Shown: positions 4,675 through 36,300, counted from the first letter of the stretch. The stretch is DNA of 64,000 nucleotides from an uncultured Micavibrio sp. (GCA_964575605.1 CAZNRN010000012.1:2933-66932); one strand, 5' to 3'. A program made the numbers and translations. Notes: generated by a model not told the origin, from the letters alone.

Positions 4675-5898
4675 TCAGGCGCCGCTCGGGAATTCGCGGA
4701 AGATCAGGTCAACGGCTTCATCATCGTGTAATGCGCCCGTAATGCGGCCGATAGAGGCCTGGGCTGTCTCAAGCTCTAGTGAAGCGTTGACACCCTCGCC
4801 ACCCGCAAGTGCTTTATCCAGCGCAGCCACGGCGATTTCGAGTGCATCGCGATGGCGACGTCGCGTAATGACCGAGCCGGGGCGCGAGCGGAAAAGCGTC
4901 GCGACACGTTCTGTGAGCTTTTCGATGAAGGCGTCCATACCTTCGCCCGTCATGACCGAGATCGATTTCACTGAACCGCCGGGTTTACCGAGGTCTGACT
5001 TGGTAAAGACGCTGAGTGTCTTGTTATCGATCATTTTAAGCGTATCCGGGTCTTGCGCGGGTTTGGTGCCATCGAATAGCGCAAGCTTCAGGTCCGCCCT
5101 GTCAACTGGTGCGTCCGTCATGATGACGGGATAGCCGTCAAGATCCATGCGCACCTCGGTAATCTCGCCCAGGTGACCCACACGGCCAGTAACAGTTGCA
5201 ACGTCGCGCCTGACCAGCGCATGCATCAGGCTGGTCTTGCCAGCGCCAGCGCCCCCGATGAGCGAAATTATAATTCCCTTGTGCATTCGCTCGCCGCGGT
5301 GACCGTCGTTCATATGGTCGCGCAAGTCTTTTACCAGCAGCCGCAGGTCGTCTTGCAGCCCCGGCAAAAGGCCTTCCGAACCTGAGCTTTCCTGCCTTGC
5401 GTGCAACGACAAGACACTTTCGCGCCAGCTGTTATAAAGGCGGGACGCGTTACCCATCGCGACATCCAGCGCCTGCAGCCGCTGCAATTCTGTTTCCGCC
5501 ATCAAGAGGTCGAGTACGCCCTCGGCTTCGATAAGGTCAAATTTTCCGTTTTCAAACCCGCGGCGCGTGAATTCGCCGGGCAATGCGTGGCGGCAGCCGG
5601 GAACTTTCGAAATGGCCTGCAATACGCTTTCAACAGCCGCGCGGCCGCCATGCAACTGGAATTCGATGACATCATCACCGTTGTAACTGAATTCCTGCGG
5701 ATAATGGATGCAGATGATGGTATCCAGCATTTTGCCGCTTGAGGGGTCTGAGAGCATATGCACTTCCACATGCCGCGGCTCGATATGGTTTTTCCACGAC
5801 AGCGCCTTGAAAACCCCGACCGCGCCCGGGCCGGAAACGCGGATGACGGCGATGCCGCACCCGAATCCTCCCGAGGCAAGGCCGAAGATTGTATCCAT
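4675..5898 (-). CDS. mnmE: tRNA modification GTPase MnmE homolog with degenerate G-domain and C-terminal motifs
   Basis: N-terminal domain conserved (EFQLHGG, LPGEFTRRGFENGKFDLIEAEG) and RRRH present. G1 is GGAGAGKT, but G3 DTAG is replaced by TDAP, G2 GTTRD is absent, and the C-terminus is FPSGA instead of FCIGK. Start at MDTIFGLAS (5898), sharing one nt with the ferredoxin stop (TAATG). Confidence 0.8.
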   Translation of the reverse strand: MDTIFGLASGGFGCGIAVIRVSGPGAVGVFKALSWKNHIEPRHVEVHMLSDPSSGKMLDTIICIHYPQEFSYNGDDVIEFQLHGGRAAVESVLQAISKVPGCRHALPGEFTRRGFENGKFDLIEAEGVLDLLMAETELQRLQALDVAMGNASRLYNSWRESVLSLHARQESSGSEGLLPGLQDDLRLLVKDLRDHMNDGHRGERMHKGIIISLIGGAGAGKTSLMHALVRRDVATVTGRVGHLGEITEVRMDLDGYPVIMTDAPVDRADLKLALFDGTKPAQDPDTLKMIDNKTLSVFTKSDLGKPGGSVKSISVMTGEGMDAFIEKLTERVATLFRSRPGSVITRRRHRDALEIAVAALDKALAGGEGVNASLELETAQASIGRITGALHDDEAVDLIFREFPSGA

Positions 5899-6266
5899 TA
5901 GCTGCAAGCCGCTGGTTTTTGAGCTGGAGAAAGCTCGGTCTGTTCCTTTTTCAGCAGCAGGCGTTCGACACGCTCGCCCTTTTGCAGGTGCGTGGCGATA
6001 ATTTCCTCGATGTCTTCCTTGCTGGAATAGGTGTACCAGGTGCCTTCCGGGTAAATCACGAGCACTGGGCCAAGTGCGCAACGGTCAAGGCAACCCGCCG
6101 AGTTGACACGGGTGGAAGCAATGCCGAGTTCCTTGACACGCGCATTCATGTAGTTGCGCAATTCCAGCGCGCCTTCCGCCTTGCAGCTGCCCTTCGGGTT
6201 GTCGGGCGGACGCTCGTTTGTGCAGCAAAAGACATGGCGCTGAAAATATAAGTTTTCTTCTGTCAT
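5898..6266 (-). CDS. thioredoxin-like [2Fe-2S] ferredoxin
   Basis: 122 aa. Cys pattern FCC...C(x)nAGCLDRCALGPV with the PEGTWY motif, typical of (2Fe-2S) ferredoxin-domain proteins. Confidence 0.8.
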   Translation of the reverse strand: MTEENLYFQRHVFCCTNERPPDNPKGSCKAEGALELRNYMNARVKELGIASTRVNSAGCLDRCALGPVLVIYPEGTWYTYSSKEDIEEIIATHLQKGERVERLLLKKEQTELSPAQKPAACS

Positions 6267-10819: not shown

Positions 10820-12271
10820 TTACTGGTTCATCATTTTGAAGAACTCGTCGTTGTTCTTCGTGTCCTTCATCTTGTCGAGCAGGAATTCCATCGCATCGGT
10901 AGTGCCCATGGGCGACATGAGCTTGCGCAGGATCCACATTTTCGACAGGGTGCCGCTTTCGACCAGCAGTTCTTCCTTGCGCGTACCAGACTTCTGTATG
11001 TCGATGGCCGGGAAGACGCGTTTATCTGCGAGCTTGCGGTCGAGGACGATTTCGGAGTTACCTGTGCCTTTGAATTCCTCGAAAATGACCTCGTCCATGC
11101 GTGAACCGGTATCGATAAGGGCGGTCGAGATGATGGTAAGCGAACCGCCCTGTTCAATGTTACGTGCCGCACCGAAGAAGCGCTTCGGGCGTTGCAAGGC
11201 GTTGGCGTCGACACCGCCCGTCAGGACTTTGCCCGACGATGGCACGACCGTGTTGTAAGCGCGGCCAAGGCGCGTGATAGAATCGAGCAGGATAACGACG
11301 TCGCGCTTGTGCTCGACCAGGCGTTTTGCCTTTTCCAGCACCATTTCCGCGACCTGTACGTGACGCGCAGCGGGTTCATCGAAGGTGGAGGAGATAACCT
11401 CGCCCTTCACCGAACGCGCCATGTCGGTCACCTCTTCCGGGCGCTCGTCGATGAGCAGCACGATGAGGTAAGCGTCAGGATGGTTGGTTTCGATGGAATG
11501 CGCGATGTTCTGCATCATCACCGTTTTACCCGTGCGCGGTTGCGCGACGATGAGGGAACGCTGGCCGAAACCGATCGGCGCGACCAGTTCGATCACGCGC
11601 TGCAGCTGCACCTGTGATTTCTGGCGTTCGCCTTTTTTGGGCGGTGCTGCCGTGCCAGTGCTGGTAGGATCGTCCAGCTCCAGCTTGATCTTGCGGTCAG
11701 GATAGAGCGGTGTCAGGTTGTCGAAGTTGATACGGTGGCGGATGTTTTCAGGGGTCTCGAAGTTGATTTTGTTGACGCGGAGCAGCGCGAAGTAGCGCTC
11801 GTTGTCTTTCGGTGCGCGGATTTCGCCCTGCACCGTGTCTCCAGTACGCAGGCCGAAGCGCTTGATTTGCGAGGGCGAGACATAAATGTCATCGGGGCCT
11901 GGCAGGTAGTTTTCTTCGGGGCTGCGCAGGAAGCCGAAGCCGTCCTGCAGCACTTCGAGCACGCCTTCGCCTGAAATCGGAATGTCTTGCTCGGCCAGCT
12001 TTTTCAGGATGGCGAACATGATTTCCTGCTTTCGCAGGGTGGAGGAGTTTTCGACGCCGAGGCTGTCCGCATATTTCAGCAGATCTTCGGGCGATTTCAG
12101 TTTCAGCTCGTGCAGGTCCATCATTTTCGCGTTGGGATCTCGGCGTGCGGCTGCTTCTTCTTCCTCGGGCGTTACATCGGCTTGCGGAACCTGTCCGTGG
12201 CCGTCGTTATTGCCGCCTTGATAGCGTCCGCCGCCGGAATGATGGCCTGAATGACGTGAGCGTTTTACCAC
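10820..12271 (-). CDS. rho: transcription termination factor Rho
   Basis: Full-length colinearity with Rho (RNA-binding domain GFGFLR, Walker A PRTGKT, C-terminus ...FFKMMNQ). The GTG at 12271 gives a ~50-aa G/H/R/E-rich extension. An alternative ATG at 12124 (MMDLHELK) is possible. Confidence 0.9.
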
Positions 12272-12606
12272 TGTTGTGTTCTTTCTTTAGATGATGGGTC
12301 TGGAAATAGGGCGATAATTATTTGGATCGTCGCGGGGGTGATTGATTTTCTGTGCAGGCATCCGCTGAAAATGAACCGGCGGACGCGCCTCTTCGAATGA
12401 AGGCTTGATGATGAAAGTTAACAAGATTCCCGATGTATGTCAACTGCCACATTTTTCCGCGCAGGCTATTTGGAGCCGTATTTTGACGCCAAGAACTTGA
12501 TTCCGCCATATTTTGCAGGGACTTGGCTTGTCATATAATGGCATGGGGCAGGTTTCATGGTTTCTTAGCGGATGCTGCGCTAGGGTTGCTAAGGGGTGTT
12601 ACTGGC

Positions 12607-14220
12607 ATGACGATCGACGAACAAATAAAAGCGGACGCGGAGGGCGGGAGCCTTCCAGCCCTGATCGCTTGGACAAGGGCGCTATTACATGGCGGAAACC
12701 CTGAGCTCGAGAAAAAAGCGGATACGCTTTTGAAAGCGGCCGAAAAGGCCGAAGACAAGGTACTTTGCGCCATAGGAATGGCCTGTTTTGCGGGCGCGCC
12801 GCCCTTCGGCAAAGATGAAGCGGTTGGAAGGCTTTGGATCAAACAGGCCGAAGCGGCAGGCAGCGCGCTCGGGGCTGAGATACTGGGCGATTTTCATTTC
12901 GCCGAAAAAGATTACAAGGCAGCCGCCAACTTTTATTCGGCAGCTATCCATCGCGGCGCTGACGGCGCCGATGTTAAGTACGCACTGATGCGCATTTGCG
13001 GACTGGGCCTGCCGCGCAGTATCGCACGCGCGATTGACGACCTGCGTACCGCAGCTGCGAATAATGCGGAAGCCGCCGCACTATTGGCGAACGGTATTGT
13101 CCCACCAACCGTTGCAAAATTGTTCATGGGTGCGGCTTATAAAGAAGAAGCTGCGGTAACAGTTCCGGAGCTCGAGGAGCATTTCACCAAGGGGCGCATT
13201 TCGGCGGCATGGTTTAAAGAGACGCCCAAGCACGCGCCACAGGCCCCGCTAACCAAGGGTTCTGCCCAAGGCAGCGACGCGCCGATTCAGCAGGCGCCTC
13301 CCGTGATTCCCACACAATCCCCGGCAGCGGTGCATGACGCGCAGCCAGACCCCTTTGCAGTGCTGGATGGCCTGGTCGGGCTGACAAAGGTCAAAAAGGC
13401 CATGAAAAGCCTTTCCAGCCAAATGAAGTTTTTCGCCAAGCGAAAGGCCGCAGGCCTGCCCTACGAAAAACCAGCCACGCACTTTGTTTTCACGGGCAAC
13501 CCCGGCACAGGGAAAACAACAGTCGCGCGGATTCTGGGCGGCATCATGAAATCCGCCGGATACCTCGAAAAAGGCCACGTCGTTGAATGTTCGGCGCGTG
13601 ACCTGATCGGCGAGTGGGTCGGTACTACCGCGCCTAAAGTCGGGCGACAGGTGGAGGCTGCGATTGGCGGGGTACTATTTATCGACGAAGCCTATTCATT
13701 ACTGAATGCGGTAGGGGCAAGGGCGTCGTTTACCGACGAAGCGATTGCAACACTGTTAAAGCTGATGGAAGACCGGCGGCACGAGTTTGTGGTGGTGGCA
13801 GCAGGTTATCCGGACGAAATGATTGCTTTCGTGAATGCCAATCCCGGATTGAAGTCGCGCTTTTCGGAATTTATCGTTTTTGATGACTATCAAGGCATGG
13901 AGCTGGAACAGATATACCTGCGGATGGCTGAGCGAATGCAGTATAAGCTCGAGGAGCGTGCGAAAATACTTCTGAATGCCGTCATGAACGAGTCACCGAC
14001 ATCCTTTGCCGGCGAATTTTCTAACGGACGTTTTGTACGTAACCTTTTCGAAGACACAATCAAGTATATGGCTGGGCGCCTCGAACGGCTTGATCAGGGG
14101 CATAACACCCCTTCCGCACCACCGGCTATCGAGGAGTTGTCACTTATCCACGCCGAGGATATCCAGATGGCCTGGGACGAGGCGAAAGCAACGCCGCGCC
14201 AGGTATCGACAGCCCTCTAG
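12607..14220 (+). CDS. Sel1/TPR-like repeat N-domain fused to a CbxX/SpoVK-type AAA+ ATPase
   Basis: Start chosen at MTIDEQIK (12607). Walker A GNPGTGKTT (13495..13521), Walker B VLFIDEAYSL, then VVVAAGYPDEM. The N-terminal ~190 aa are helical Sel1-like repeats, followed by a P/Q/A linker. Confidence 0.8.
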   Translation: MTIDEQIKADAEGGSLPALIAWTRALLHGGNPELEKKADTLLKAAEKAEDKVLCAIGMACFAGAPPFGKDEAVGRLWIKQAEAAGSALGAEILGDFHFAEKDYKAAANFYSAAIHRGADGADVKYALMRICGLGLPRSIARAIDDLRTAAANNAEAAALLANGIVPPTVAKLFMGAAYKEEAAVTVPELEEHFTKGRISAAWFKETPKHAPQAPLTKGSAQGSDAPIQQAPPVIPTQSPAAVHDAQPDPFAVLDGLVGLTKVKKAMKSLSSQMKFFAKRKAAGLPYEKPATHFVFTGNPGTGKTTVARILGGIMKSAGYLEKGHVVECSARDLIGEWVGTTAPKVGRQVEAAIGGVLFIDEAYSLLNAVGARASFTDEAIATLLKLMEDRRHEFVVVAAGYPDEMIAFVNANPGLKSRFSEFIVFDDYQGMELEQIYLRMAERMQYKLEERAKILLNAVMNESPTSFAGEFSNGRFVRNLFEDTIKYMAGRLERLDQGHNTPSAPPAIEELSLIHAEDIQMAWDEAKATPRQVSTAL

Positions 14221-14657
14221 AACGGCTTCATCACAACCAGAATGACGATGACGATCATCAGCATGGTCGGAATTTCGTTCACGCCGCGGTAAAATTTCGC
14301 GCTTTTGGTGTTCTGATCTTTGACGAACTGTTTTCGCCAACGGGCCAAAAAACCGTGGAAAGCTGTCATGCCCAGCACCAGCGTAATTTTCGCGTGCATC
14401 CAACCCTGTTTGAGAATTTCCGGGTTTTCCCAGAGCATCAATCCGCCGAAAACGAAGGTCAAGACCATCGCCGGGTTGATGATGATGCGCAGCAGCTTGC
14501 GTTCCATGATCTTGAAGGTCTCGGATAGCTCCGAGCCTTTATCGGCATCGGCATGATAAACGAAAAGCCTTGGCAGGTAGAGCATGCCCGCCATCCATGC
14601 GATGACGGAAATAATATGGAGTGCCTTATACAAAGCGTAAAAATCAAAGTCTGACAT
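14217..14657 (-). CDS. hemJ: protoporphyrinogen IX oxidase HemJ (UPF0093 family)
   Basis: 146 aa, 4 TM. The conserved YKALHIISVIAWMAGMLYLPRLFVYH start is typical of HemJ. Directly abuts hemH. Confidence 0.8.
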   Translation of the reverse strand: MSDFDFYALYKALHIISVIAWMAGMLYLPRLFVYHADADKGSELSETFKIMERKLLRIIINPAMVLTFVFGGLMLWENPEILKQGWMHAKITLVLGMTAFHGFLARWRKQFVKDQNTKSAKFYRGVNEIPTMLMIVIVILVVMKPF

Positions 14658-15692
14658 TTATCCCTCGCACGCGCAGCGCTTGAATTTTTCAGGGCATGAC
14701 CGGCCGCAGGGCTTTCCTGAAATCGCATCCTTCACCAATTTGGCAAGGCCGGCGATAAAAGCGGGATGTGTGCCCACAGTTTCCACCCTTGCGAAATAAG
14801 GCAGGCCCAACTGCTCTGCCTTATGCCTGTATTCCATCTCGATTTCAACCAGCGTCTCGACATGCTCCGAAACGAAGGCGTGCGGATAGATAACCACGCC
14901 TTTTCTGTCTGCGGCTGCCTGGGCAAGGGCTTCTTCGGTCGAGGGACCGATCCATTTCAACGGGCCGACACGACTTTGATAACAAATTTGCCAGTCCAAT
15001 CCGGGGATATTTAATTCCCTCACGATCGCTTCCGCTGTTTTCTCGCATTGGTATTGGTAAGGGTCGCCACCGATGACGATCTTTTCGGGCAGGCCATGGG
15101 CGGAAAATAGCAGACGAGTCCCGCCGGGCGCTTTTTCCAGCTGCTGCCGGATGTTTTCGGCGGAGGCCTTTATAAAACCGTCCTGCACGGGATAACAGCA
15201 GATTTTTGATACATTCGTTTCATCGCCCCATCTTGCGTGAAGCGCACCGTCATCTGCCTGTACATTGGTCCAGAAGTCCTGGAACGATGAACCCGTGGTA
15301 GTGGTCGAGAACTGTGGGTAAAGCGGCAATAGCACGAGATGGTCGGGTTTTAGGTCATTAAGTTTTCCGATGACTTCTTTTGACAATGGGTACCAATAGC
15401 GCATGGAGACGAGCACTTCGGCGTCCATTCCCCGGCCGCGCAGTTCTGTTTGCAGGGCTTCGGCCTGTTTACGCGTGTTTTCGAGCAACGGCGATTTAAA
15501 GCCGAGTTTTTCGTAGGCGGCCCTTGCTGCGGCCTTGCTGCGCGTACGTGAAATGTAATGAGCTATAAACCATCTGATCGGCAGGGGCGCGCCAATGATG
15601 TTTTTATCCATGAAGAAGTTGTAAAGGAACGGCCTGATATCGGCTTCCTGCGAAGGACCACCCAAATTCATCAGGACAACGGCAGTTTTCAC
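14658..15692 (-). CDS. hemH: ferrochelatase
   Basis: MKTAVVLMNLGGP..., LLPLYPQFSTTTTGS and SAHGLP motifs. 344 aa. Confidence 0.9.
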   Translation of the reverse strand: MKTAVVLMNLGGPSQEADIRPFLYNFFMDKNIIGAPLPIRWFIAHYISRTRSKAAARAAYEKLGFKSPLLENTRKQAEALQTELRGRGMDAEVLVSMRYWYPLSKEVIGKLNDLKPDHLVLLPLYPQFSTTTTGSSFQDFWTNVQADDGALHARWGDETNVSKICCYPVQDGFIKASAENIRQQLEKAPGGTRLLFSAHGLPEKIVIGGDPYQYQCEKTAEAIVRELNIPGLDWQICYQSRVGPLKWIGPSTEEALAQAAADRKGVVIYPHAFVSEHVETLVEIEMEYRHKAEQLGLPYFARVETVGTHPAFIAGLAKLVKDAISGKPCGRSCPEKFKRCACEG

Positions 15693-16696
15693 CGGCGGAA
15701 TTCCCTGATGATTGTCGACAGTTGCGCAACATGCTCGGGCGGAGTGTCTTTGATGACACCATGCCCGAGATTGAAAATAAAAGGACGCTTGGCAACAGCA
15801 TTGAGGATGCGCAGCGCGCCATCCCGCATTTCCTGACCCCCTTTCAGCAACAGCGCTGGGTCAAGGTTTCCCTGCAGGCAGAACTTCGGCGGGAAAATAT
15901 CGAATGAAGCGGACTGGTCAAGGCCTAGGGCATCAACACCAGTTTCTTCGGCGTAGCGCTTGTAAAAGGGGCCGACTACGGCGCGGGGAAAGCCAATAAT
16001 AGGGATATCTGGGTTTGTCGACTTGAGCTTGCGCACAATTTCACGAGTGGGCGCAATCGACCATTCGACAAACTGCTGGCGGTTCAGCAAATTGGCCCAG
16101 CTGTCGAACAGCTGGATTGCCTGTACCCCGTTCGCAATCTGGCCGCGCAGGTATTGCACCGTCGCGTCGGTAATGACGGCGAGCAAGTCCTTGAACTTAT
16201 CCGGCTGTACTTCGGCGAATTGCCTGGCGACAGGAAAATCATTGCCACCCTGCCCTTGCACCATGTAACAGGCAACAGTCCATGGAGAACCAGCAAAGCC
16301 TATCAGCGCTTTTTCAGGGCCAAGATTTTTACGTATGCGTCGAACAGTGTCATAAACCGGCTCCAGCCTGCTTTCGTTCATTTTAAGCGAGGCGATGCGA
16401 AGAGCGCCAAGCCGCGGACCTTCACCTTCCATGAAATCGAGCTGCTGTCCCAAAGCATGCGGGACAACAAGGATGTCGGAAAACAAGATAGCCGCATCCA
16501 TATCGAAACGCCGGATCGGCTGTAAGGTTACTTCACAGGCAAGTTCAGGGTTGAAACAGAGGTTAAGGAAGGATCCGGCGTTTTTACGCAGGTCACGATA
16601 TTCCGGCAGATAACGCCCTGCCTGGCGCATAAACCAGAACGGTACCTGCGGTGTTATCTCCCCGTGGAGAGCTGCGATGATGGCTGGCTTGGTCAT
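15689..16696 (-). CDS. hemE: uroporphyrinogen decarboxylase
   Basis: PFWFMRQAGRYLPEYR signature near the N-terminus. 335 aa. 4-nt overlap with hemH. Confidence 0.92.
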   Translation of the reverse strand: MTKPAIIAALHGEITPQVPFWFMRQAGRYLPEYRDLRKNAGSFLNLCFNPELACEVTLQPIRRFDMDAAILFSDILVVPHALGQQLDFMEGEGPRLGALRIASLKMNESRLEPVYDTVRRIRKNLGPEKALIGFAGSPWTVACYMVQGQGGNDFPVARQFAEVQPDKFKDLLAVITDATVQYLRGQIANGVQAIQLFDSWANLLNRQQFVEWSIAPTREIVRKLKSTNPDIPIIGFPRAVVGPFYKRYAEETGVDALGLDQSASFDIFPPKFCLQGNLDPALLLKGGQEMRDGALRILNAVAKRPFIFNLGHGVIKDTPPEHVAQLSTIIREFRR

Positions 16697-16794
16697 GATG
16701 CCCTTGTTTACCGGAATCTAAAGTGCCAGTTTTTACCCTTAAAATATATAAGTATTAGAATCTTTTAGTAGGAGTCTGTAGGACGGTGCAAGGC

Positions 16795-16803
16795 GGGGAT
16801 AAT
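16795..16803 (-). promoter_or_regulatory. DnaA-box-like 9-mer (ATTATCCCC on minus strand)
   Basis: The plus strand reads GGGGATAAT. Contains the TTATCC core of the TTATCCACA consensus. Confidence 0.5.
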
Positions 16804-16913
16804 CCGGGATTCACATTTTTCCCCCTTACCTGCAGTCGCCGCGCTGTCCCGTATCGTGGAAAAAGATGCCGGATATAGTCGTTCACCACGCAGATTCAAT
16901 AATTTACCAAATT

Positions 16914-16922
16914 TGTGAATAA
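16914..16922 (-). promoter_or_regulatory. DnaA-box-like 9-mer (TTATTCACA on minus strand)
   Basis: The plus strand reads TGTGAATAA, one mismatch to TGTGGATAA (the E. coli R-box complement). Confidence 0.55.
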
Positions 16923-16953
16923 CCTTGATAACTTGTGATTCCGTAAACATCAG

Positions 16954-16962
16954 TTATCCCCG
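16954..16962 (+). promoter_or_regulatory. DnaA-box-like 9-mer TTATCCCCG
   Basis: Direct read. Shares TTATCC with the consensus. Confidence 0.5.
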
Positions 16963-17023
16963 TTATTCTATTCCGGAGTCTGCCTGCGTATTCTTCCTGC
17001 AAGGCTTTCGCAGGACACGTCAT

Positions 17024-17032
17024 TTATCCCGC
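17024..17032 (+). promoter_or_regulatory. DnaA-box-like 9-mer TTATCCCGC
   Basis: Part of the 10-mer TTTATCCCGC, which is repeated exactly at 17064. Confidence 0.5.
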
Positions 17033-17064
17033 AGGGAAACTTCTCCCGTCTTTTATGCACTAGT

Positions 17065-17073
17065 TTATCCCGC
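17065..17073 (+). promoter_or_regulatory. DnaA-box-like 9-mer TTATCCCGC
   Basis: Exact repeat of the 17024 box, 12 bp upstream of the next box. Confidence 0.5.
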
Positions 17074-17076
17074 GAA

Positions 17077-17085
17077 TTATCCCCA
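17077..17085 (+). promoter_or_regulatory. DnaA-box-like 9-mer TTATCCCCA
   Basis: Direct read. Matches TTATCCACA at 8 of 9 positions. Confidence 0.55.
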
Positions 17086-17169
17086 GAACCATGCATAATC
17101 AAGCTTCCATGCCCCGATTTTTCCCGATAGGATAAATCGGTTCAGGCAAGGGGTTTAAAAGGCTGCGAT

Positions 17170-17778
17170 ATGGCGGAAGACTGGCAAAAACTTGATGCGG
17201 AAAAATCCGCGCGTATCCTGTCGGAGGTTAATCCCCATCTGGAGCCTGTGCCGTTCAGCGTCGAACATACTACGATCCGTGCTCAACGCCTGCCTTTTTA
17301 TAAAAGTTATGAACTTTTCGAACTGACGGATCTTTCTGCTGTACCCGCCGCGCGCAAATACGCGCTTTACAAGCCGGGCGACATCAACGTCATCAACTGG
17401 ACGAACCAGACGATATACGAGACAAACGAGAAAGCGCCGATCAGCCTCGACGAGCGCAATGTCGTGGACTACGTGAAATTTTTCTTCAACTATGTGCGCG
17501 GGCGCCATGGCCGTTTCCTCATCATCGAGACGATCGATGACATCCGCTGGCAGGTAGAACCGCCGCTACAAGGCCGCAAGGTCATGCAGGAAATGCTTGT
17601 GCCCGTCGGGGTTGTCAGCCAGGACGCTGATGGAACGTTCAACCTTGAAGCCTTCATGGTTTTCAAGGACAGCCTTTTCAAGACCAAGATCCACGTCAAA
17701 AAAGACGGGCTGGTCAGCATGTCCGACGAAGAACTTAAAATCGAAGGCATGCCAGTCCTTCAGGACGCCGCGGCCTGA
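17170..17778 (+). CDS. hypothetical protein (202 aa), first gene right of the putative origin
   Basis: Clean ORF with genome-typical codon usage and an AAAGG ribosome-binding site. No family recognised. No signal peptide or TM segment. Confidence 0.7.
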   Translation: MAEDWQKLDAEKSARILSEVNPHLEPVPFSVEHTTIRAQRLPFYKSYELFELTDLSAVPAARKYALYKPGDINVINWTNQTIYETNEKAPISLDERNVVDYVKFFFNYVRGRHGRFLIIETIDDIRWQVEPPLQGRKVMQEMLVPVGVVSQDADGTFNLEAFMVFKDSLFKTKIHVKKDGLVSMSDEELKIEGMPVLQDAAA

Positions 17779-19092: not shown

Positions 19093-20124
19093 ATGGCTAA
19101 GGACATCGACTTCGATAGCGAGTCCCAAATTAAGAAGCCCGATACGCGGGGCTTTAAAAATACCTCGCGCCGCCTGCGCGAAGGCCAGCAAAAGCCGCTC
19201 AGCCACCGAGCGAGCCTTGACTGGCGCCTGGACCAGCGCACCGTGTGCGATAAGAATGGTCATAGCGCCGAAATCGTTCCCATCGCCGAGCTGAAAGAAA
19301 CTCTGTTGAAGAGCCGCACTGCCGAAGCGCTGTTCGAACAGGCCGGCAACCTCGAGATTGTTTACGACATGCAAAGCGCATCTTCGCAATATTATTGCCG
19401 CGAAGGCTGGCGCGTGATCACGTTGAACCCGCTGCGTCCGAAAGGCGACCTCATCAACCTGCTCGCGAAAGAACTTCGCCGCGACTGGCAATATTGCCAT
19501 GGCGCGCTGGTCAACCCGCTGGGCTACGAACCCGACGAAGCGATCCTTGTCAACCGCGCGCAAAGCGCCGATGTGCTGATGATCGCTGTCAAAATCGCCT
19601 GGGAACTGAAACTGGCCGGCGAAAACGAAGCCTGGGATTTTCTCGCGGCCACGCCGTCGGGAGATGTCACCCGCACTTACGAGCTGAAGGCGCAGGCAGA
19701 TTTCCGCACCCTGAACAACGGTGAAGCGGCGCGCGCGGCCTACGACAAGTTTTTCGAAGACAGCCGTACGAAACTGCATGACAAGCGCCTGATCCATCAG
19801 ATGCTGCTGGATGAAAGCGGCTATATGAAGGCAGGCTCGAAGCGCCCGAAGGTGACCATGGAGCTGTTCCAGCGCCTGGGCGAAGTCCCCGGCGGCCGCA
19901 ATTACCTGTCGATGCAGGCAAAACATGTACCGACCGACATGTGCTACGCAACCGTGGAAGACCGCTCTAACGCGAACTTCCTCTGGTTCATCAAGTTCGA
20001 ACGCAGCTTCCAGGAAAAGGAACTGCAGATGGTTAAAGAATCCGTGAAGCTGTCTGCCGAGGTCGTCGACTTCCGCAAATACTCCACGGGCAAGCGCGCC
20101 CGGCCGTCAGAGCTGGGCCAATAA
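19093..20124 (+). CDS. hypothetical protein, family member P1 with degenerate metal motif (KELRR ... SAD)
   Basis: 343 aa. Aligns by eye along its full length with 20176..21066, 31304..32188 and 53262..54350. KELRR at 19468..19482 sits where the paralogs have HELRH. Shares GGRNYLS with P2. Confidence 0.75.
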   Translation: MAKDIDFDSESQIKKPDTRGFKNTSRRLREGQQKPLSHRASLDWRLDQRTVCDKNGHSAEIVPIAELKETLLKSRTAEALFEQAGNLEIVYDMQSASSQYYCREGWRVITLNPLRPKGDLINLLAKELRRDWQYCHGALVNPLGYEPDEAILVNRAQSADVLMIAVKIAWELKLAGENEAWDFLAATPSGDVTRTYELKAQADFRTLNNGEAARAAYDKFFEDSRTKLHDKRLIHQMLLDESGYMKAGSKRPKVTMELFQRLGEVPGGRNYLSMQAKHVPTDMCYATVEDRSNANFLWFIKFERSFQEKELQMVKESVKLSAEVVDFRKYSTGKRARPSELGQ

Positions 20125-20175
20125 TTTCCGCTGTTCCGCCTCCCGCGGGATTGCCCGGATTTCGGAGGACTAGGA

Positions 20176-21066
20176 ATGCTGGAGCCGTTCTGCGACCGGC
20201 GCATAAAATTCTCCCTCGAGTCGTTGCTGGATCGCGACGCCTATATCGTCCCTGCTGAAAAACGCGCTTCGGCTTTTGCGGGCTATGTCCGAAGCCTTGC
20301 CGCCATAACGTCGCAAAGCTCGCTGGGAAGCGCCTTGTTGCGCGCAGCTGTGCTCCAGGGTGTATCTGTCGGGCTTGACCCCTTGCTTGAGCCCAATTCA
20401 AGTTATTTCTATCCGCAGCAAAACCATTTTGACTTAGGCTTTCAGCCCGACCTGCTGCAAAAGAGCGAAAAAGGCGTCAGCCAGTACCTCGTTTCTTTTG
20501 TCGGCGGTTTGCGCCGTGCGTGGCTTTTGCACAAGGGCCATGCGCCGGATGTTTCGCTTCGTCCCGACGACTTCTTGAAATTCTGCCGCTGTGCGGAAGC
20601 GGATGCAGGAGCTGTAACTCAGCTGGTCGCCTGGGAATTGCGCTCGGCGAATGCCGGTTTCATGTGGCGGCATTTGCTGTCAGGCCCGGACGGGGATATG
20701 TCGGTTATATTTGAACGCGCCATCATGGAAGGGCTGCAGAGCCAGTTTGACGGACTGGCGTTGAAGGCCGCTTTCAACCAATGGTTCGCTGACCGTGAAA
20801 GGATTGCGCTTTGTGATCACACGGCGCTTGAACTTATCGATATGTCGTTGATGCAGTTTGGCGGTCCGCCGCATGTCGGGGTCCGCAGCTTGAAACTCTC
20901 ATCCCTGCAGTCACTGGGTTCGTTGCCCAACGGACGCAACTATTTGTCCGGCTGCCTCTTCATGGGCGGCTGGTATAATATGATTGAGGACGAGTTTAAT
21001 CGTACGCATCTACGCCACATAGAACGGGATATTGCGCAACTTATTGAAAAACAACATAATATTTAA
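20176..21066 (+). CDS. hypothetical protein, family member P2 with degenerate metal motif (GGLRR ... EAD)
   Basis: 296 aa with a GGAGGA ribosome-binding site. GGLRR at 20503..20517. Shares AWEL, NGRNYLS and the C-terminal helix with P1. Confidence 0.75.
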   Translation: MLEPFCDRRIKFSLESLLDRDAYIVPAEKRASAFAGYVRSLAAITSQSSLGSALLRAAVLQGVSVGLDPLLEPNSSYFYPQQNHFDLGFQPDLLQKSEKGVSQYLVSFVGGLRRAWLLHKGHAPDVSLRPDDFLKFCRCAEADAGAVTQLVAWELRSANAGFMWRHLLSGPDGDMSVIFERAIMEGLQSQFDGLALKAAFNQWFADRERIALCDHTALELIDMSLMQFGGPPHVGVRSLKLSSLQSLGSLPNGRNYLSGCLFMGGWYNMIEDEFNRTHLRHIERDIAQLIEKQHNI

Positions 21067-26761: not shown

Positions 26762-28639
26762 ATGAATACGAAATATGACGTCATCGTTGTGGGTGGAGGC
26801 CATGCCGGCTGCGAAGCAGCAGCGGCGGCCGCCCGCATGGGCGCTAAGACCTTGTTATTGACACATAAAATAGATTCGGTCGGCGTCATGTCCTGCAACC
26901 CTGCTATTGGTGGGCTTGGAAAAGGCCATCTTGTCAGGGAGATAGACGCTTTAGACGGGGTGATGGGCAAAGTAATCGACCAGGCCGGCATCCAGTTTCG
27001 TATCCTGAATGCCAGCAAAGGGCCTGCTGTGCGCGGTCCGCGCGCGCAGGCGGATCGCAAGCTTTACCGTGAAAACATGCAGCAGATGCTGCTGAACTAT
27101 CCCAACCTGACCCTGCACGGAGATGGCGCAGAAGAGATTTTGCGCGACGCAGCGGGATCTATTACAGGCGTGAAGACGTCGCTCGGCACCGAATTTTCTT
27201 GCGGCGCGCTGGTTATCACCACTGGCACTTTCCTGCGTGGCATCGTGCACCGTGGCCGCACGCAGCATGAGGCAGGACGCATCGGCGAGAAACCGTCCGT
27301 CGGCCTGGCGCTGTCGCTTGAAAAACTTAACCTGCCGATGGGCCGTTTGAAGACGGGCACACCCGCGCGCCTCGACGGCCGTACTATCGACTGGAAAGTT
27401 TGCGAAGAACAACCGGGGGATAATCCGCCGACGCCGTTCTCCTTCATGAACGACCGTGTTACTGTGCCGCAGATTTCCTGCTTCATCACCTACACCAATG
27501 ACAAGACGCACCAGATCATCCGCGACAACCTGCATGATGCGCCGATGTATTCCGGCCAGATTAAATCGAGCGGTCCGCGTTATTGTCCCTCAATTGAGGA
27601 CAAGGTTGTGCGCTTCGCTGACAAGGAGCGTCACCAGATTTTCCTTGAGCCCGAAGGCTTGGACGATGACACCGTCTATCCAAACGGCATATCGACTTCG
27701 TTGCCCGAGCAGGTGCAGGCGGACCTGATCAAAACAATCCCGGGCCTCGAGAACGCGGTTATCCTGCAGGCCGGATATGCGATCGAGTATGATTACGTCG
27801 ATCCACGCGCCATGAAGCGTACGCTCGAAACCAACGCTGTTACAGGCCTTTTCCTTGCTGGCCAAATCAACGGCACGACCGGTTACGAAGAAGCTGCGGC
27901 GCAGGGTTTGATCGCCGGCATCAACGCTGCGTTAAAGGCATCCGGCAGCGGTGACGAGTTTGTGCTCGACCGTGCCGACGGTTACATCGGCGTGTTGATT
28001 GATGACCTGGTGACCCAAGGTGTGTCAGAGCCCTACCGCATGTTCACCTCGCGCGCTGAATACCGTCTGCTGTTGCGCGCCGATAATGCTGACCAGCGGC
28101 TGACACCCGCCGGCATTTCCATAGGATGTGTGGGGGCTGCGCGTTCCTCTTCTTTCGAAGAAAAACATCGTCAGCTGTCAACTGCACGCGAGAAAGTTCA
28201 AAACCTCTTCGCGCTGCCAATCGAGTTGGAGCGCCGCGGTTTCAGGGTGAATCAGGACGGTGTTCGCCGCTCGGCCCATGACCTGATGCGTTATCCGGAT
28301 ATTACTTTCGATGCGCTGGCTTCTATTTGGCCGGAATTGAAAGATATCACGCCTGCCATCGCCGCCCAGATCGAAATCGACGCGCGCTATGCCGGATATA
28401 TCCAGCGTCAGGAAGCTGACATTAAGGCGTTCCGCCGTGACGAAGCTTTACTGCTACCGAAAGACCTGGACTATGCGCAAGTCGGCAGCCTCTCGAACGA
28501 GATGCGCCTCAAGCTTGGCAAGCATCGACCGGATACCTTGGGGGCTGCTGCGCGCATTCCGGGCGTGACGCCCGCCGCCCTCGTCGCGCTTCTGCGCCAC
28601 GTCAAACGTAAGCCTGAAGCAGAGTCCAAAGTTGCCTGA
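26762..28639 (+). CDS. mnmG: tRNA uridine 5-carboxymethylaminomethyl modification enzyme MnmG (GidA)
   Basis: [19 protein letters not shown] motif. 625 aa, colinear with GidA. Confidence 0.95.
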
Positions 28640-29258
28640 TTCAATCGCTGATATCCTTGCAAGACACGGCCTGCATGTTTCACGTGAAACATCTGAAAAA
28701 TTGAATATTTACAATACTTTACTTTTGAAGTGGCAAAAGGCTATCAACCTCGTCAGCCCTACCACTATGGCTGAGGCCGGCGTTCGGCATTTCTATGATA
28801 GTGCGCAGCTTTTCCGCTATATTCCTGACCCTGATGTACGTTTGGCAGACATGGGGTCAGGCGCGGGGTTCCCTGGTCTGGTTCTCGCTCTGCTGGGGGT
28901 GCGGCAAGTTCATCTGATTGAATCAGACGTTCGTAAAGCGACCTTCCTGAGGGAGGTTTCACGTGAAACAGGCGTGGCGGTCACGGTTCATGATATCCGG
29001 GTTGAGGATTGTAAAATTCCCGGGTTGGATGTCGTTACAGCCCGCGCGCTTGCGCCCCTGCGCCATCTTCTCGAACATATGGATCATCTGGCGACGCCGG
29101 GCCATGAATGCTACGGCCTTTTCGCCAAGGGTGCCCAGTACGAGGAAGAACTTGTGAAAGCCCGCAAGCAATGGGGGTTTGATCTCGAGAGTTTTAACAG
29201 CGAAACCGAGCCGGAGGCGCGTATCCTCCGTATTCGCCACCTGCAGCATAAACAATAA
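28632..29258 (+). CDS. rsmG: 16S rRNA (guanine527-N7)-methyltransferase RsmG (GidB)
   Basis: TTG start overlapping the mnmG end by 8 nt. VSRET...LLLKW and [13 protein letters not shown] motif. Confidence 0.9.
28676..28691. promoter_or_regulatory. parS site, perfect TGTTTCACGTGAAACA
   Basis: Exact 16-bp palindrome matching the ParB-binding consensus. Lies inside rsmG (encodes HVSRET). Confidence 0.9.
28955..28970. promoter_or_regulatory. parS site, GGTTTCACGTGAAACA (1 mismatch)
   Basis: 15 of 16 match to the consensus. Lies inside rsmG (encodes VSRET). Confidence 0.8.
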
Positions 29259-29286
29259 ATATGTTAAATTAAGACCTTTCCGCAGT

Positions 29287-29302
29287 TGTTTCACGTGAAA
29301 CA
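29287..29302. promoter_or_regulatory. parS site, perfect TGTTTCACGTGAAACA
   Basis: Exact palindrome in the rsmG-parA intergenic region. Confidence 0.9.
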
Positions 29303-29326
29303 ACTGGGAGGAGCGTCTCTGCGCAC

Positions 29327-29342
29327 TGTTTCACGTGGAACA
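29327..29342. promoter_or_regulatory. parS site, TGTTTCACGTGGAACA (1 mismatch)
   Basis: 15 of 16 match, 40 bp after the previous site. Confidence 0.8.
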
Positions 29343-29406
29343 ATTTGCAATTAAATTAGCCACGCGATGGCTTGATTGGACTCGGGAAGAGGATTACAAA
29401 GTCTTC

Positions 29407-30258
29407 ATGACCCATCCCATCGTCAAAAACGAAGCTTTCATCGCCACGGACGGCGGTTCCGCCTCCTCCGCGACCCGGTATATCAGCATTTCAAACCAGA
29501 AAGGCGGCGTCGGCAAGACCACGACTACTGTCAACCTGGCCACAGCCCTTGCCGCTGTTGGCAAAAAGGTTCTGGTGATCGACCTTGATCCGCAGGGTAA
29601 CGCCTCGACCGGCTTCGGTGTCGACCGCGCGCAGCGCGTTAACGGCACATATGAAGTACTTTTCGGTGATTGCTCTGCAGATGAAGCTGCAATTGCGACA
29701 AAAGTGCCTAACCTTTACATCATTCCCTCCTCGATTCACCTGTCGGGCGCCGAGATCGAGCTGGTGGATGCCGAACGTCGCGAGGCCCGCCTGAAAATGG
29801 CACTGGAGCTATCGCAGCAGAATTATGACTATGTGCTGTTTGACTGCCCTCCCTCGCTTAATCTTCTTACGTTAAATGCGCTTGTCGCTTCGACCGGCGT
29901 ACTCGTCCCCCTGCAATGCGAGTTCTATGCGCTGGAGGGCCTCAGCCACCTGGTGAAAACGATCGAACGTGTCACGGCCAGCTTTAACCAGAAGCTCGAA
30001 CTGATGGGCGTCGTGCTGACCATGTACGACAAGCGCAACAACTTAGCTATGCAGGTCGCCGACAACGTGCGCGGCTTTTTCGGGGATAAGGTTTACGACA
30101 CGGTGATCCCCCGTAACGTGCGCATTTCCGAAGCGCCCTCTTTCGGCCTTCCCGCTATCGTCTACGACATGCACTGCCCCGGCTCGCAGGCCTATATCCA
30201 GCTCGCTAAAGAAATTTTGAAGCGCGAGCAAAAACTGCAGCTGCAATACGGCACATAA
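29407..30258 (+). CDS. parA: chromosome partitioning ATPase ParA
   Basis: Deviant Walker A NQKGGVGKTT. Start taken at MTHPIV (29407). The ORF-track GTG at 29335 would run through a parS site. Confidence 0.9.
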   Translation: MTHPIVKNEAFIATDGGSASSATRYISISNQKGGVGKTTTTVNLATALAAVGKKVLVIDLDPQGNASTGFGVDRAQRVNGTYEVLFGDCSADEAAIATKVPNLYIIPSSIHLSGAEIELVDAERREARLKMALELSQQNYDYVLFDCPPSLNLLTLNALVASTGVLVPLQCEFYALEGLSHLVKTIERVTASFNQKLELMGVVLTMYDKRNNLAMQVADNVRGFFGDKVYDTVIPRNVRISEAPSFGLPAIVYDMHCPGSQAYIQLAKEILKREQKLQLQYGT

Positions 30259-30275
30259 TATATTGGAGAAATAGG

Positions 30276-31232
30276 ATGACCGCAGAAGTAAAAAAACGCG
30301 GCCTTGGCCGCGGCCTCGACGCCCTCTTCCAGGACCAGCGCAAGGAAGAAGAAGCCTTCCAGCCCAAGATCAAGCGCGCCGATGAAATTGTCGCAGCAGC
30401 ACAGGCCGAGGTGAAACCCCAGGCCGGCGCCACGCCGCAGACTGCCGGCCCCCGCAAGGTTGCCGTCGAACGCCTTACCCCCGGCAAATACCAGCCGCGC
30501 CGTTTCTTTGACGACGCCGCGCTCGACCAGTTGTCTGACAGCATCGCCGCACATGGCGTGTTGCAGCCGCTGCTGGTGCGTCCCCTTTCTGGCAACATGT
30601 ATGAAATCATCGCAGGCGAGCGCCGCTGGCGTGCCGCGCAAAAAGCGCAGCTACATGAAGTGCCGGTCGTTATCGTCCAGCTGCCCGACAAGGAAACGCT
30701 GGAAATCGCGCTCATCGAAAACCTGCAGCGTGAAGACCTGACGGCGGTTGAAGAGGCCGAAGGCTACCAGCGCCTGATGGACGAATTTGGCCATACGCAG
30801 GAAATGCTGTCACAGCAGCTCGGCAAAAGCCGTAGCCATGTTGCAAATACCCTGCGACTGCTGAAACTGCCGCAGACCGTGCGCACCATGGTGCAGAGCG
30901 GCGCCCTTTCGGCCGGCCATGCCCGCGCGCTCGTCGGCGCAAAGGATCCGGAAGCACTGGCAAGCCTGATTACCCGCCGCAATCTCAGCGTCCGCCAGAC
31001 CGAAGCGCTCGTGCAGAAATCTTCAGAAGGCAAGCTGAAGCTGCCGCGCAAAAAAGGCTTTGTCGAAAAAGACGTCGATGTGCTGGCACTGGAAGAACTC
31101 ACGACCTCCAAGCTCGGCATGCGCGTGACGATCAACGGTGATGGCCCCGCCGGGACGCTCAGCATAGAGTATAAATCGCTCGATCAGCTGGATGACCTGC
31201 TGGCGCGTCTTGGACAGACACCGAAGCGTTAA
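30276..31232 (+). CDS. parB: chromosome partitioning protein ParB
   Basis: KRGLGRGLDALF, GERRWRAA box and an HTH region (SQQLGKSRSHVANTLRLL). Confidence 0.93.
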   Translation: MTAEVKKRGLGRGLDALFQDQRKEEEAFQPKIKRADEIVAAAQAEVKPQAGATPQTAGPRKVAVERLTPGKYQPRRFFDDAALDQLSDSIAAHGVLQPLLVRPLSGNMYEIIAGERRWRAAQKAQLHEVPVVIVQLPDKETLEIALIENLQREDLTAVEEAEGYQRLMDEFGHTQEMLSQQLGKSRSHVANTLRLLKLPQTVRTMVQSGALSAGHARALVGAKDPEALASLITRRNLSVRQTEALVQKSSEGKLKLPRKKGFVEKDVDVLALEELTTSKLGMRVTINGDGPAGTLSIEYKSLDQLDDLLARLGQTPKR

Positions 31233-33773: not shown

Positions 33774-36300
33774 TGATAATCCTGTTCGGCACCACGATAA
33801 CTTTCTTGGCGGCTTTGCCTTCCATGGCTTTTTGAACGGCCGGCTCGTCCAGCGCCGCTTTTTCGGCGTCGGGCTGGGCAAGGTCCTTGGGCAGCTGGAT
33901 GGTGGAGCGTAGCTTGCCGTTCACCTGGATGGCGATGGTGACGGTATCACTGCCCAGCCAGTTCTTGTCGGCTTCTGGCCAGCTGGAGTTGACGACCATT
34001 TCTTTATGGCCAAGATGCGACCAGAGCTCTTCGGCCAGGTGCGGCATAACGGGGGCCATCAGGCGGATCAGCGCCTCGCAGCCCTCTTTCAGCACAGCTC
34101 CGTCGCCCTTCTTGGCCGAGAAATCTTCCAAGGCATTTGAAAGCTCGCGCAGGCGCGCAATGGCCTTGTTGAAATGGAACTTTTCAAGGTCCTGCGTCAT
34201 CATATCGATGGTGCCGTGGATCTTGCGCTTCATCCCCTCCACATCGCCGCCCGTGCCATTGAAATCGGCCAGGGTGACAAGGCGCCAGAGGCGGTTGACG
34301 TATTTCCAGGCGCCCTCGATACCGCCTTCCGTCCATTCAACGTCCCGCTCCGGCGGGCTGTCGGAGAGGATCAGCAGGCGAGCAGCGTCGATCCCGTAGT
34401 TGACAGAGACTTCCTCGAGGCCGATCACGTTCTTGCGCGATTTCGACATTTTCTCGATGCGGCCGACGGTCACGGGCGTGCCGTCCGATTTACGGACATG
34501 CGCGCCGTTGTGGCCCTTCTCGATATCGGTCGGCGCCAGCCATTTGCCGTCTTCGCCCTTATAAGTTTCGTGGACGACCATGCCTTGGGTGAACAGCGCG
34601 GTAAAAGGCTCGTCAAAATCGAGGTAGCCGCATTTTTTGAGGGCGCGCGTAAAGAACCGCGCATAGAGCAAGTGCATGACGGCATGTTCGACGCCACCGA
34701 TATATTGGTCGACAGGCGCCCAGTATTTTACCTTCTCTTTCGAGAAGCCGGCCTGCTCGTTATGCGGATCGCAGTAACGGAACTGGTACCAAGAACTTTC
34801 AAAGAAAGTATCGAAGGTGTCTGTTTCACGTTCGGCGTCCTTGCCGCAGGAGGGGCATTTGGTCTTTTTCCACGTGGGGTGGTTATAGATCGGGTTACCT
34901 GGCTTGTCGAAACTGACATCTTCCGGCAGCGTCACGGGCAGATCGGCCTCGGGCACGGGTACTGCGCCGCATTCCTGGCAATGGATAATCGGGATCGGGC
35001 AGCCCCAATAGCGCTGGCGGCTGACGCCCCAATCCCTTAGACGGTAAAGCGTTGTCCCCTGCCCCGTTTTGGCAGCTTCGAAGCGCTTGATAACTTCGGC
35101 CTTGGCCTCGTCGATTGTCATGCCGTTTAGGAAGTCCGAATTATAAAGTTTTCCGGGGCCGGTATATGCCTCCATATCGACGGCGAAATCGCGGCCGTCC
35201 TTGTCGGGCGGGATAACGACAGGGATAACATCCAGGTTATACTTGCGTGCGAAGTCCAGGTCGCGCTGGTCATGCGCGGGGCAGCCGAAAATCGCACCGG
35301 TGCCGTATTCCATCAGGACGAAGTTGGCGATAAATACGCGCAGCGTCTTGCCAGCGATAAACGGGTGAACGACGGTCAGGCCGGTGTCATGGCCGATTTT
35401 TTCGGCGGTTTCGATGACCGCTTCTGATGTGCCGATCTTGCGGCATTTCTCGATAAACTCTTCCACGCCCATGTCGTTCTTTGCCAGCTTCTGCGCGACC
35501 GGATGGTCGGGAGAGATGGCGACGAATGAAGCGCCAAAAAGCGTATCAGGGCGCGTCGTGTAGATTTCCAGGCGCTGGCCTTTCGGCTTGGTCAGCTCGA
35601 AAGTGAATTTCAGGCCCTGGGACTTGCCGATCCAGTTCTCCTGCATCAGGCGGACTTTTTCGGGCCAGCCCTGCAGCTGCGAAATGCCATCCAGCAAGTC
35701 GTCGGCGAAGGCAGTAATTTTCAGGAACCATTGTTTCAGCTTGCGGCGCTCAACCAGCGCGCCCGAGCGCCAGCCGCGGCCGTCGACCACCTGCTCGTTC
35801 GCGAGCACGGTGTTTTCGATCGGATCCCAGTTGACGAAGGATTCTTTTTGGTACGCCAGCCCGGCCTTCAGGAAGTCGAGGAAGTATTTCTGTTCGTGCC
35901 TGTAATATTCTGGTGCGCAGGTGGCGATCTCGCGCGACCAGTCGATGGCAAGGCCCATCAGCTTCAGGTCCTGCTTCATCGCGGCGATATTCGCATAGGT
36001 CCATTTGGCAGGATGGGTTTTGTGTTCCATAGCCGCGTTTTCGGCGGGCAGGCCGAAAGCGTCCCAGCCCATGGGGTTCAGCACGTTGTAGCCCCGCGCG
36101 CGTTTGTAACGCGCCACGATGTCCGACATCGTATAGTTGCGCATATGGCCGACGTGCAGCTTGCCCGAAGGATAGGGGAACATGGCCAGCGTGTAATACT
36201 TGGGTTTGTCGGCGCTTTCCGTCACCTCGAAGCAGCGGCTGCTTTCCCAGGCCTGCTGCCAGCGGGCTTCGGTTTCCTTCACATTATAACGGTCGCTCAT
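33760..36300 (-). CDS. leuS: leucine--tRNA ligase
   Basis: 846 aa. HVGH (HIGH) and KMSKS motifs. Confidence 0.97.

Follow-up and report, generated by a model that had tools for sequence, protein, structure and literature searches.

A probable hemE-linked chromosomal replication origin in a 64-kb stretch of DNA from an uncultured Micavibrio sp.

Where does chromosome replication begin in an uncultured Micavibrio sp. for which a 64,000-nucleotide stretch of DNA is at hand (GCA_964575605.1, CAZNRN010000012.1:2933-66932)? This whole stretch is referred to below as the window, and positions are counted from its first letter. It contains a 473-bp intergenic gap (16697-17169, no strand assigned) between hemE and the gene of a 202-amino-acid protein, p202, and the gap aligns with the homologous gaps of 13 relatives. 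A preliminary description, made from the sequence alone, had proposed a hemE-linked replication origin (oriC) here. We conclude that the gap is very probably a DnaA-dependent chromosomal oriC of the hemE-linked alphaproteobacterial type, in which unwinding at an AT-rich tract (16739-16768) would be directed by a pair of DnaA boxes (16785-16802). This proposal is supported by boxes conserved in relatives whose hemE is 54-60% identical, by an approximately 12-fold raised box density across 80 hemE loci and by a GC skew switch in sister clades. Overall, it is well supported but not proven.

The gap has a G+C content of 44.8%, compared with about 57% for the window, and contains seven to nine DnaA boxes arranged as two opposed arrays, which diverge from about position 16940. 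One array lies on the plus strand and points to p202. It consists of box d (TTATCCCCG, 16954-16962), with an adjoining weak box TTATTCTAT (16963-16971), box c (TTATCCCGC, 17024-17032), box b (TTATCCCGC, 17065-17073) and box a (TTATCCCCA, 17077-17085), the last being the first member of a tandem pair in which a and b are 12 bp apart. The other array lies on the minus strand and points to hemE. It begins with box e (TTATCAAGG, 16923-16931), which is degenerate in the window, and box f (TTATTCACA, 16914-16922); e and f are in tandem and stand back to back with d. It ends with box h (TTATCCCCG, 16794-16802) and a degenerate partner, CCTTGCACC (16785-16793), both of which point to the AT-rich tract.

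The six 9-mers listed in the preliminary description were all recovered at their positions, namely TTATCCCCG at 16954, TTATCCCGC at 17024 and 17065, TTATCCCCA at 17077, and ATTATCCCC and TTATTCACA on the minus strand. ATTATCCCC, at 16795-16803, is box h read one position out of its canonical register. The 10-mer TTTATCCCGC is an exact repeat, as had been noticed, and the boxes themselves are the sole repeats in the gap. Beyond that list we found the degenerate box TTATCAAGG, the motif TTATCCTAT and seven GANTC sites.

These words are strongly concentrated in the gap. TTATCCC occurs five times within its 473 bp and 13 times in the remaining 63.5 kb. For the shorter core TTATCC, the gap has six copies and the other intergenic DNA has four, which corresponds to an approximately 11-fold enrichment; other intergenic DNA here means all further gaps of at least 100 bp in the window, 3,446 bp in total. 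TTATCCC(C/G)-type words are therefore not equally common in other intergenic regions, a possibility that the preliminary description had named as damaging to its proposal. Among the intergenic regions of the window, the hemE-p202 gap has the highest density of both TTATCC and GANTC, and no other intergenic DnaA-box cluster of comparable kind was found within the 64 kb. Candidates elsewhere were set aside. A cluster at 22.9-23.4 kb (seven sites with at most two mismatches) is scattered, heterogeneous and mostly coding. A pair of GGGATAAC at 35208 and 35220 (35208-35228) has the same 12-bp distance as boxes a and b; it lies inside leuS and was judged incidental. The 432-bp gap at 36955-37386 contains merely two unrelated TTATCC.

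To analyze the conservation of the boxes, we used a comparative set of 80 hemE loci from other species, and a 14-way alignment of the window gap with 13 gaps whose hemE is 54-87% identical. In the 80 loci, the density of TTATCC was 5.3/kb in the 500 bp upstream of hemE and about 0.45/kb in the flanks, a difference of about 12-fold. Within the alignment, boxes a and d are found with at most two mismatches in all 14 gaps; a is a perfect TTATCCACA in nine of them, and d sits in the most conserved core of the alignment. Box h is kept with at most two mismatches in 11 gaps, and its partner with at most three in nine (five mismatches in the window). For box e the same limit of two mismatches holds in 12 gaps and for box f in 11, the relatives having TTATCCCCG followed by TTATCCACA at these places. 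Box b has at most three mismatches in 12 of the 14, with the TTATCC core present in most relatives, and a TTATCC(C) core shifted by 1 bp stands at the position of box c in about 10. Altogether, five boxes keep their position in 11 or more of the 14 gaps.

The distances between the boxes are conserved as well. They are 12, 41, 70, 31, 9 and 120 bp in the window, and 12, 40, 71, 29, 9 and 121 bp in locus L006, whose hemE is 59% identical. The same layout, with spacing within ±2 bp, recurs before hemE in metagenome-assembled genomes (MAGs) with 54-60% identical hemE. Such rigid geometry is a requirement of a nucleoprotein machine and is unexpected for a simple operator. A variable spacer of about 100 bp (16821-16913, no strand) separates the core boxes from the hemE-proximal module, and its alignment columns are unconserved; blastn gave no alignment of it with the closest relative, L004. 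An independent assembly of the same strain (L001, JGI contig Ga0498938_0004376) stops at window position 16910, and this break is thus inside the gap, in the variable spacer that separates the box arrays.

Two other short motifs in the gap are conserved and unlike the box consensus. The TTATCCTAT site (17127-17135, minus strand), about 35 bp before the start of p202, carries an ATCCTA(T/G)CG motif, of which ATCCTA(T/G) is kept in 13 of the 14 gaps, yet it has at least three mismatches to the DnaA-box consensus; it could be a weak DnaA box or a promoter or operator element. A CTGGCA motif (16721-16730, minus strand), a poor sigma-54 site, is located about 30 bp before hemE. Both may be promoter, operator or leader elements. 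In addition, a second rise of TTATCC, at 1.3-2.2/kb against about 0.45/kb, was seen in the relatives (L004-L083) from +1000 to +1750 of the hemE start. This is the start of hemH (about 14.9-15.7 kb in the window, which has TTATCC at 15604 and 15187), and the rise is probably a conserved codon pattern.

The hemE-side array leads to a candidate DNA unwinding element. This is the AT-rich tract TTAAAATATATAAGTATTAGAATCTTTTAG (16739-16768, no strand), 25 bp from box h, which corresponds to the AT-rich run placed at about 16736-16772 in the preliminary description. By nearest-neighbour energy it (about 16740-16770) is the least stable 30-bp duplex of the 64 kb. Its A+T content ranges over 77-87% across the 14 aligned gaps, eight of which have an almost identical tract. 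In a metagenome scan, a 25-mer of the tract was found in two contigs, each time at the homologous hemE-p202 gap and at no other locus.

Between the box pair and the AT-rich tract is a CTA-type trinucleotide run, CTCCTACTA (16766-16774, minus strand), which resembles DnaA-trios. The order from the h pair is a 10-bp spacer, then CTCCTACTA, then the AT-rich tract, and relatives have (CTA)3-5 or CTATTACTA at the position of CTCCTACTA. A pattern of tandem co-oriented boxes, two to four G/C, CTA-type trinucleotides and AT-rich DNA recurs before hemE across the set, including Micavibrio-like loci and Azospirillum. Locus L019, for example, reads TAATCCCCG-ATTCCCACA-GGCC-CTA-TTA-CTA, and L056 has five CTA-type repeats. 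We also searched with strict rules modelled on a published search, namely a box with at most two mismatches, an optional second box with at most four, no more than 16 bp of spacer, and three or more NAN trios on the correct strand. This module was found in 18 of 81 loci, where about 0.6 would be expected (about 30-fold), and more loci show the pattern by eye. Within the h pair, the strong and weak members are swapped between the window (TTATCCCCG then CCTTGCACC) and L004 (TTTTCCCCG then TCATCCACC), which looks like upkeep of one good box and not like decay.

The gap is also rich in GANTC. Its seven sites (16714, 16758, 16772, 16808, 16893, 16937 and 16976) are the maximum for any 473-bp segment of the window, where the density is 1.3/kb overall and 3.5/kb in other intergenic DNA. 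Three of them are conserved, none with an assigned strand. The site GAGTC (16976-16980), a putative CcrM methylation site, is kept in all 14 gaps; GATTC (16937-16941), at the centre between the divergent box arrays, in 10; and GAATC (16758-16762), inside the AT-rich tract, in eight. A scan of the gap against Rfam returned no family (best E-value 0.24). A sigma-70 promoter scan gave one plus-strand match and none for hemE, and was uninformative.

Replication polarity was considered with every locus turned to place hemE on the plus strand. In the relatives, the whole-flank GC skew rose from -0.037 on the non-hemE side to +0.020 on the hemE side, and 50 of 65 loci showed the polarity of an origin (p = 2e-8). 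At third codon positions, genes of either strand had skews of -0.12 and -0.02 to the left of the gap and of +0.06 and +0.13 to the right. Because the sign is the same on both strands, the skew of the relatives is linked to replication and is not a by-product of gene orientation. A switch with origin polarity was found in 22 of 23 Micavibrio-like loci (p = 5e-7) and in 20 of 26 Azospirillaceae-like loci (p = 5e-5). In the Micavibrio-like clade, the polarity of GGGNAGGG, which resembles the FtsK-orienting polar sequences (KOPS), also changes at the gap (p = 0.001). As an independent marker it was rejected, being confounded by coding-strand bias in other clades and having too few sites in the window.

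The partition locus lies close to the gap, where the preliminary description had placed it. Four parS sites (28676, 28955, 29287 and 29327; 28676-29342, no strand) are 11.5-12.2 kb away, and chance would give 0.22 of them; none of 100 shuffles gave four. The genes parA and parB follow at 29335-31232 on the plus strand, so that parS and parAB together are 11.5-14 kb from the gap.

Taken together, these features suggest how the origin might work. What was observed is the motifs with their enrichment and their deeply conserved positions and orientations, the instability of the AT-rich tract, the synteny, and the skew polarity of related clades; DnaA binding, the unwinding site, methylation and origin firing are inferred. 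DnaA would sit on the seven to nine TTATCC(C/A)C-type boxes, in two opposed arrays from about 16940, of which the hemE-side array would end in the co-oriented pair at 16785-16802, the CTA-type trinucleotides and the 30-bp AT-rich tract. There, a DnaA-ATP oligomer would extend onto one strand and melt the duplex, whereupon the helicase would load. Forks would then exit both ways, one of them moving in the direction in which hemE-hemH-hemJ-rho are transcribed, and its opposite in the direction of p202, the kinase-like gene and the two DUF6782 genes. Through the conserved GANTC sites, the methylation state of the origin would probably report replication, as in other CcrM-bearing Alphaproteobacteria.

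Several results weigh against this proposal. The first group concerns GC skew. No skew switch was found at the gap in the window. There, the hemE side has a plus-strand skew of +0.025 and the non-hemE side one of -0.003, a course that is flatter than that expected of an origin or runs against it; after coding-strand correction the hemE side is at about +0.07 and the non-hemE side at about 0, again unlike the expected pattern. In the closest clade of the window a switch is present in eight of 16 loci (p = 0.78). Because this clade shows no switch, the skew argument for the lineage of the window is borrowed from its sister clades, and skew in the lineage itself gives no support and no clear contradiction. 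Across the whole window, third codon positions carry a C-over-G coding-strand bias of about -0.13 on both sides, which swamps replication-linked skew in this lineage. The remaining results concern motifs and genes. With up to two mismatches to TTATCCACA allowed, the gap contains six sites and is enriched about 5-fold, and 0.9% of segments of the window equal it. The gap has no full CtrA site (TTAA-N7-TTAA), no TTAACCAT and one loose TTWW-N7-TTWW, and for IHF it has neither WATCAANNNNTTR nor WATCAN5WTR. No DnaA match was found among the open reading frames scanned across the 64 kb, which agrees with the earlier statement that dnaA is outside the window; the rest of the replicon is outside it too. 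Finally, the window fails the strict unwinding module, in that box h has two mismatches, its partner has five, and CTC-CTA-CTA begins 19 bp after h, where the limit is 16. Because of this partner and spacer, we keep the DnaA-trio reading of CTCCTACTA in the window as plausible but unproven.

These results leave room for other explanations. A gap between two divergent genes must hold the promoters of both hemE and p202, and the boxes could be DnaA-responsive operators for one or both genes, with the origin elsewhere. Conserved motifs near both start codons (ATCCTA(T/G)CG before p202 and CTGGCA before hemE), the missing skew switch in the window and its closest clade, and the absence of dnaA nearby all fit such a regulated promoter region. 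However, seven to nine boxes in opposed arrays with ±2 bp spacing, together with an AT-rich tract and a box pair, far exceed a typical DnaA operator, and the homologous gap is the skew-switch point in two sister clades. The locus is moreover the predicted origin in Azospirillum (bioRxiv 10.64898/2026.09.14.751567) and the mapped origin in Caulobacter (PMC6393856). In Caulobacter the hemE promoter is part of the origin and both functions coexist, so that the two roles are compatible. We consider it unlikely that the gap serves as a promoter region alone.

It is very unlikely that the gap is a DnaA-titrating or reactivating locus (datA- or DARS-like), or a relic origin that no longer fires. In the clade, purifying selection clearly acts on the AT-rich tract and the strongest boxes, the swap of pair members between the window and L004 resembles maintenance, parS and parAB are still about 12 kb away, and such loci are not described beside hemE. 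What speaks for this explanation is the combination of dense boxes with no detectable local skew switch in the lineage, and also that box e and the partner of box h are more degenerate in the window than in relatives. Both an operator role and a titrating or relic role would be compatible with origin function, because the promoters of hemE and p202 must be in the gap as well. TTATCC-like words might also have gathered by chance in AT-richer intergenic DNA, as could be suggested by the approximately 5-fold enrichment under the loose rule and by the scattered cluster of similar size near 23 kb. This explanation has hardly any probability left and is effectively refuted, given the approximately 11-fold excess over other intergenic DNA, the approximately 12-fold excess upstream of hemE across the 80 loci and the positional conservation of individual boxes in distant relatives. 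A DnaA-dependent, hemE-linked oriC thus remains the explanation that we favour.

The genes around the gap were examined in the window and, for synteny, in 6-kb flanks of the relatives' loci. Transcription leads away from the gap on both sides, with hemE (15689-16696, minus strand; TIGR01464, E = 5e-110) on the left and p202 (17170-17778, plus strand) on the right. Genes diverge from the gap in this way in the window and in 47 relatives. The preliminary description had noted a tendency of genes to diverge from this point. This holds for hemJ, hemH and hemE (14217-16696) and for rho (10820-12271), whose identities were confirmed, all on the minus strand; the overall bias is modest, with six plus and six minus genes to the left and 25 plus and 17 minus genes to the right. 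On the hemE side are also mnmE (4675-6081, minus strand) and, between mnmE and rho, genes for a DsbH-like thioredoxin, a dienelactone hydrolase and an unknown protein. To the right of p202 follow an APH-like kinase and two tandem paralogues of DUF6782, a putative metallopeptidase (19093-21066, plus strand), which are conserved in 35-38 relatives. Then come Sel1 and prmA on the minus strand, thiolase and adenosine deaminase, the genes mnmG, rsmG, parA and parB (26762-31232, plus strand), and, to the right of parB, holA and leuS on the minus strand. In most of the relatives' loci, hemE, hemH, hemJ and rho are likewise on one side of the gap. The other side has p202 in 47 of the 80 loci, the kinase in 16 and the two DUF6782 genes in 35-38.

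Between rho and hemJ, the window has a gene for a CbbX/SpoVK/EccA-like AAA ATPase (12523-14220, plus strand), whose N-terminal region, about 280 amino acids long, is unannotated. It is present there only in the window and its closest relative L004; in other relatives hemJ adjoins rho. The ATPase is unrelated to p202. In many Alphaproteobacteria, mnmE, mnmG, rsmG, parA and parB form a single cluster. Here, mnmE and mnmG-rsmG-parA-parB are on opposite sides of the gap in mirrored orientation, a layout that would fit an old inversion spanning the origin. A recent origin-centred inversion separating mnmE from mnmG was rejected, since the close flanks of the gap are syntenic across 47 relatives; any such rearrangement must for the same reason be old.

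An identical hemE is present on metagenome contigs of JGI 3300048597 and SRR14271333/4. In GTDB, the nearest genome is a MAG that bears the label "Alphaproteobacteria bacterium" and whose hemE is 87% identical. The next relatives have 50-60% identical hemE and include Micavibrio-like MAGs and Azospirillaceae.

The other neighbour, p202, matched no family in Pfam or NCBIfam, and no PDB entry matched it by fold or sequence. Its AlphaFold model is confident, with a predicted local distance difference test (pLDDT) score of 86 and a predicted template modelling (pTM) score of 0.81. The family comprises about 1,344 representative clusters, and the domain also occurs as two to four copies in proteins of 0.9-2.3 thousand residues with TPR repeats or an AAA domain. 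The gene is divergent from hemE in 47 of the 80 relatives, at a place where Caulobacter, Rickettsia and Azospirillum have DUF299. Between genomes with merely 54-60% identical hemE, p202 is 75-94% identical. We considered that p202, having taken the canonical place of DUF299 in this clade, to which Micavibrio-like MAGs belong, might be an origin-associated factor, such as an initiation regulator, that co-evolves with the rigid layout of the origin. Such a role is rather improbable.

With a likely origin fixed, the replichore layout and the distance between parS and the origin can be given for a poorly known lineage of uncultured Alphaproteobacteria. The likely position may also aid the orientation of genomes, coverage-based estimates of growth rate (peak-to-trough ratio) and quality checks of MAGs. 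The comparative picture of a hemE-linked origin is one of five to seven positionally conserved boxes at fixed spacing, a module leading from a box pair to an AT-rich tract, and conserved GANTC sites. In the type described here, CtrA and IHF motifs are absent and the flanking gene is different. Its location beside hemE and its design are already known for the alphaproteobacterial class, and the current understanding of origins is unchanged.

Read in the strand orientation of the Bacillus subtilis unwinding element, the h end of the gap resembles the basal unwinding system of that species in its co-oriented box pair, short G/C spacer, CTA-type trinucleotides (3'-GAT-5' on the other strand) and AT-rich DNA. 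In B. subtilis oriC, this system consists of DnaA boxes 6 and 7 and the DnaA-trios, and it is predicted in most bacterial origins (PMC6669920, PMC8287927, PMC10721633). Unlike B. subtilis, the window has a degenerate second box, and 19 bp separate its good box from the first three consecutive trios; many relatives fit better.

The gene hemE is an indicator for origin prediction by Ori-Finder (PMC2275245). The oriC of Azospirillum is predicted by DoriC and Ori-Finder between yqfL (DUF299) and hemE; like the gap, it adjoins hemE and contains about six DnaA boxes that differ in orientation, and parAB is about 12.4 kb distant (bioRxiv 10.64898/2026.09.14.751567). In our set, the Azospirillum loci have a box followed by GGCC and CTA-type repeats before hemE, as well as a local skew switch, and their non-hemE flank is DUF299-maf-aroE (DUF299 was seen in locus L033). 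In contrast, the flank here consists of p202, a kinase-like gene and two DUF6782 genes, and the intergenic sequences align at motifs only.

A close counterpart is the experimentally mapped Cori of Caulobacter crescentus, which is flanked by hemE and CCNA_00001 (PMC6393856, PMC5587793) and contains five GANTC sites (PMC6393856). Like Cori, the gap is directly upstream of hemE and has several DnaA boxes, an AT-rich region and multiple GANTC sites, with dnaA not adjacent. C-rich box variants are common to both (TTATCCCC in the gap, weak W and moderate G boxes in Cori), as is the proximity of parS and parAB, which are within about 10 kb in Cori and 11.5-14 kb from the gap. Unlike Cori, the gap is without TTAA-N7-TTAA CtrA sites and an IHF consensus, its other flank is p202 and not DUF299 (COG1806, also known as CCNA_00001, RP001 or yqfL), and its boxes are more numerous and nearer to the Escherichia coli consensus. 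In the Rickettsiales, the origins of Wolbachia, Rickettsia and Ehrlichia are bounded by hemE, measure 400-600 bp and contain DnaA boxes, with A+T being raised. Either COG1806 or COG1253 forms the second boundary, and some of these origins lack CtrA sites (PMC1914354). The Rickettsiales origins contain two to four DnaA boxes and an IHF site, compared with seven to nine boxes and no IHF consensus in the gap. The parallel with Caulobacter drawn in the preliminary description thus covers the hemE flank, the DnaA boxes, the AT-rich tract, the GANTC sites and the parS sites close by. It does not extend to the CtrA sites, the IHF site and the DUF299 flank, all of which are features that also vary among the Rickettsiales origins.

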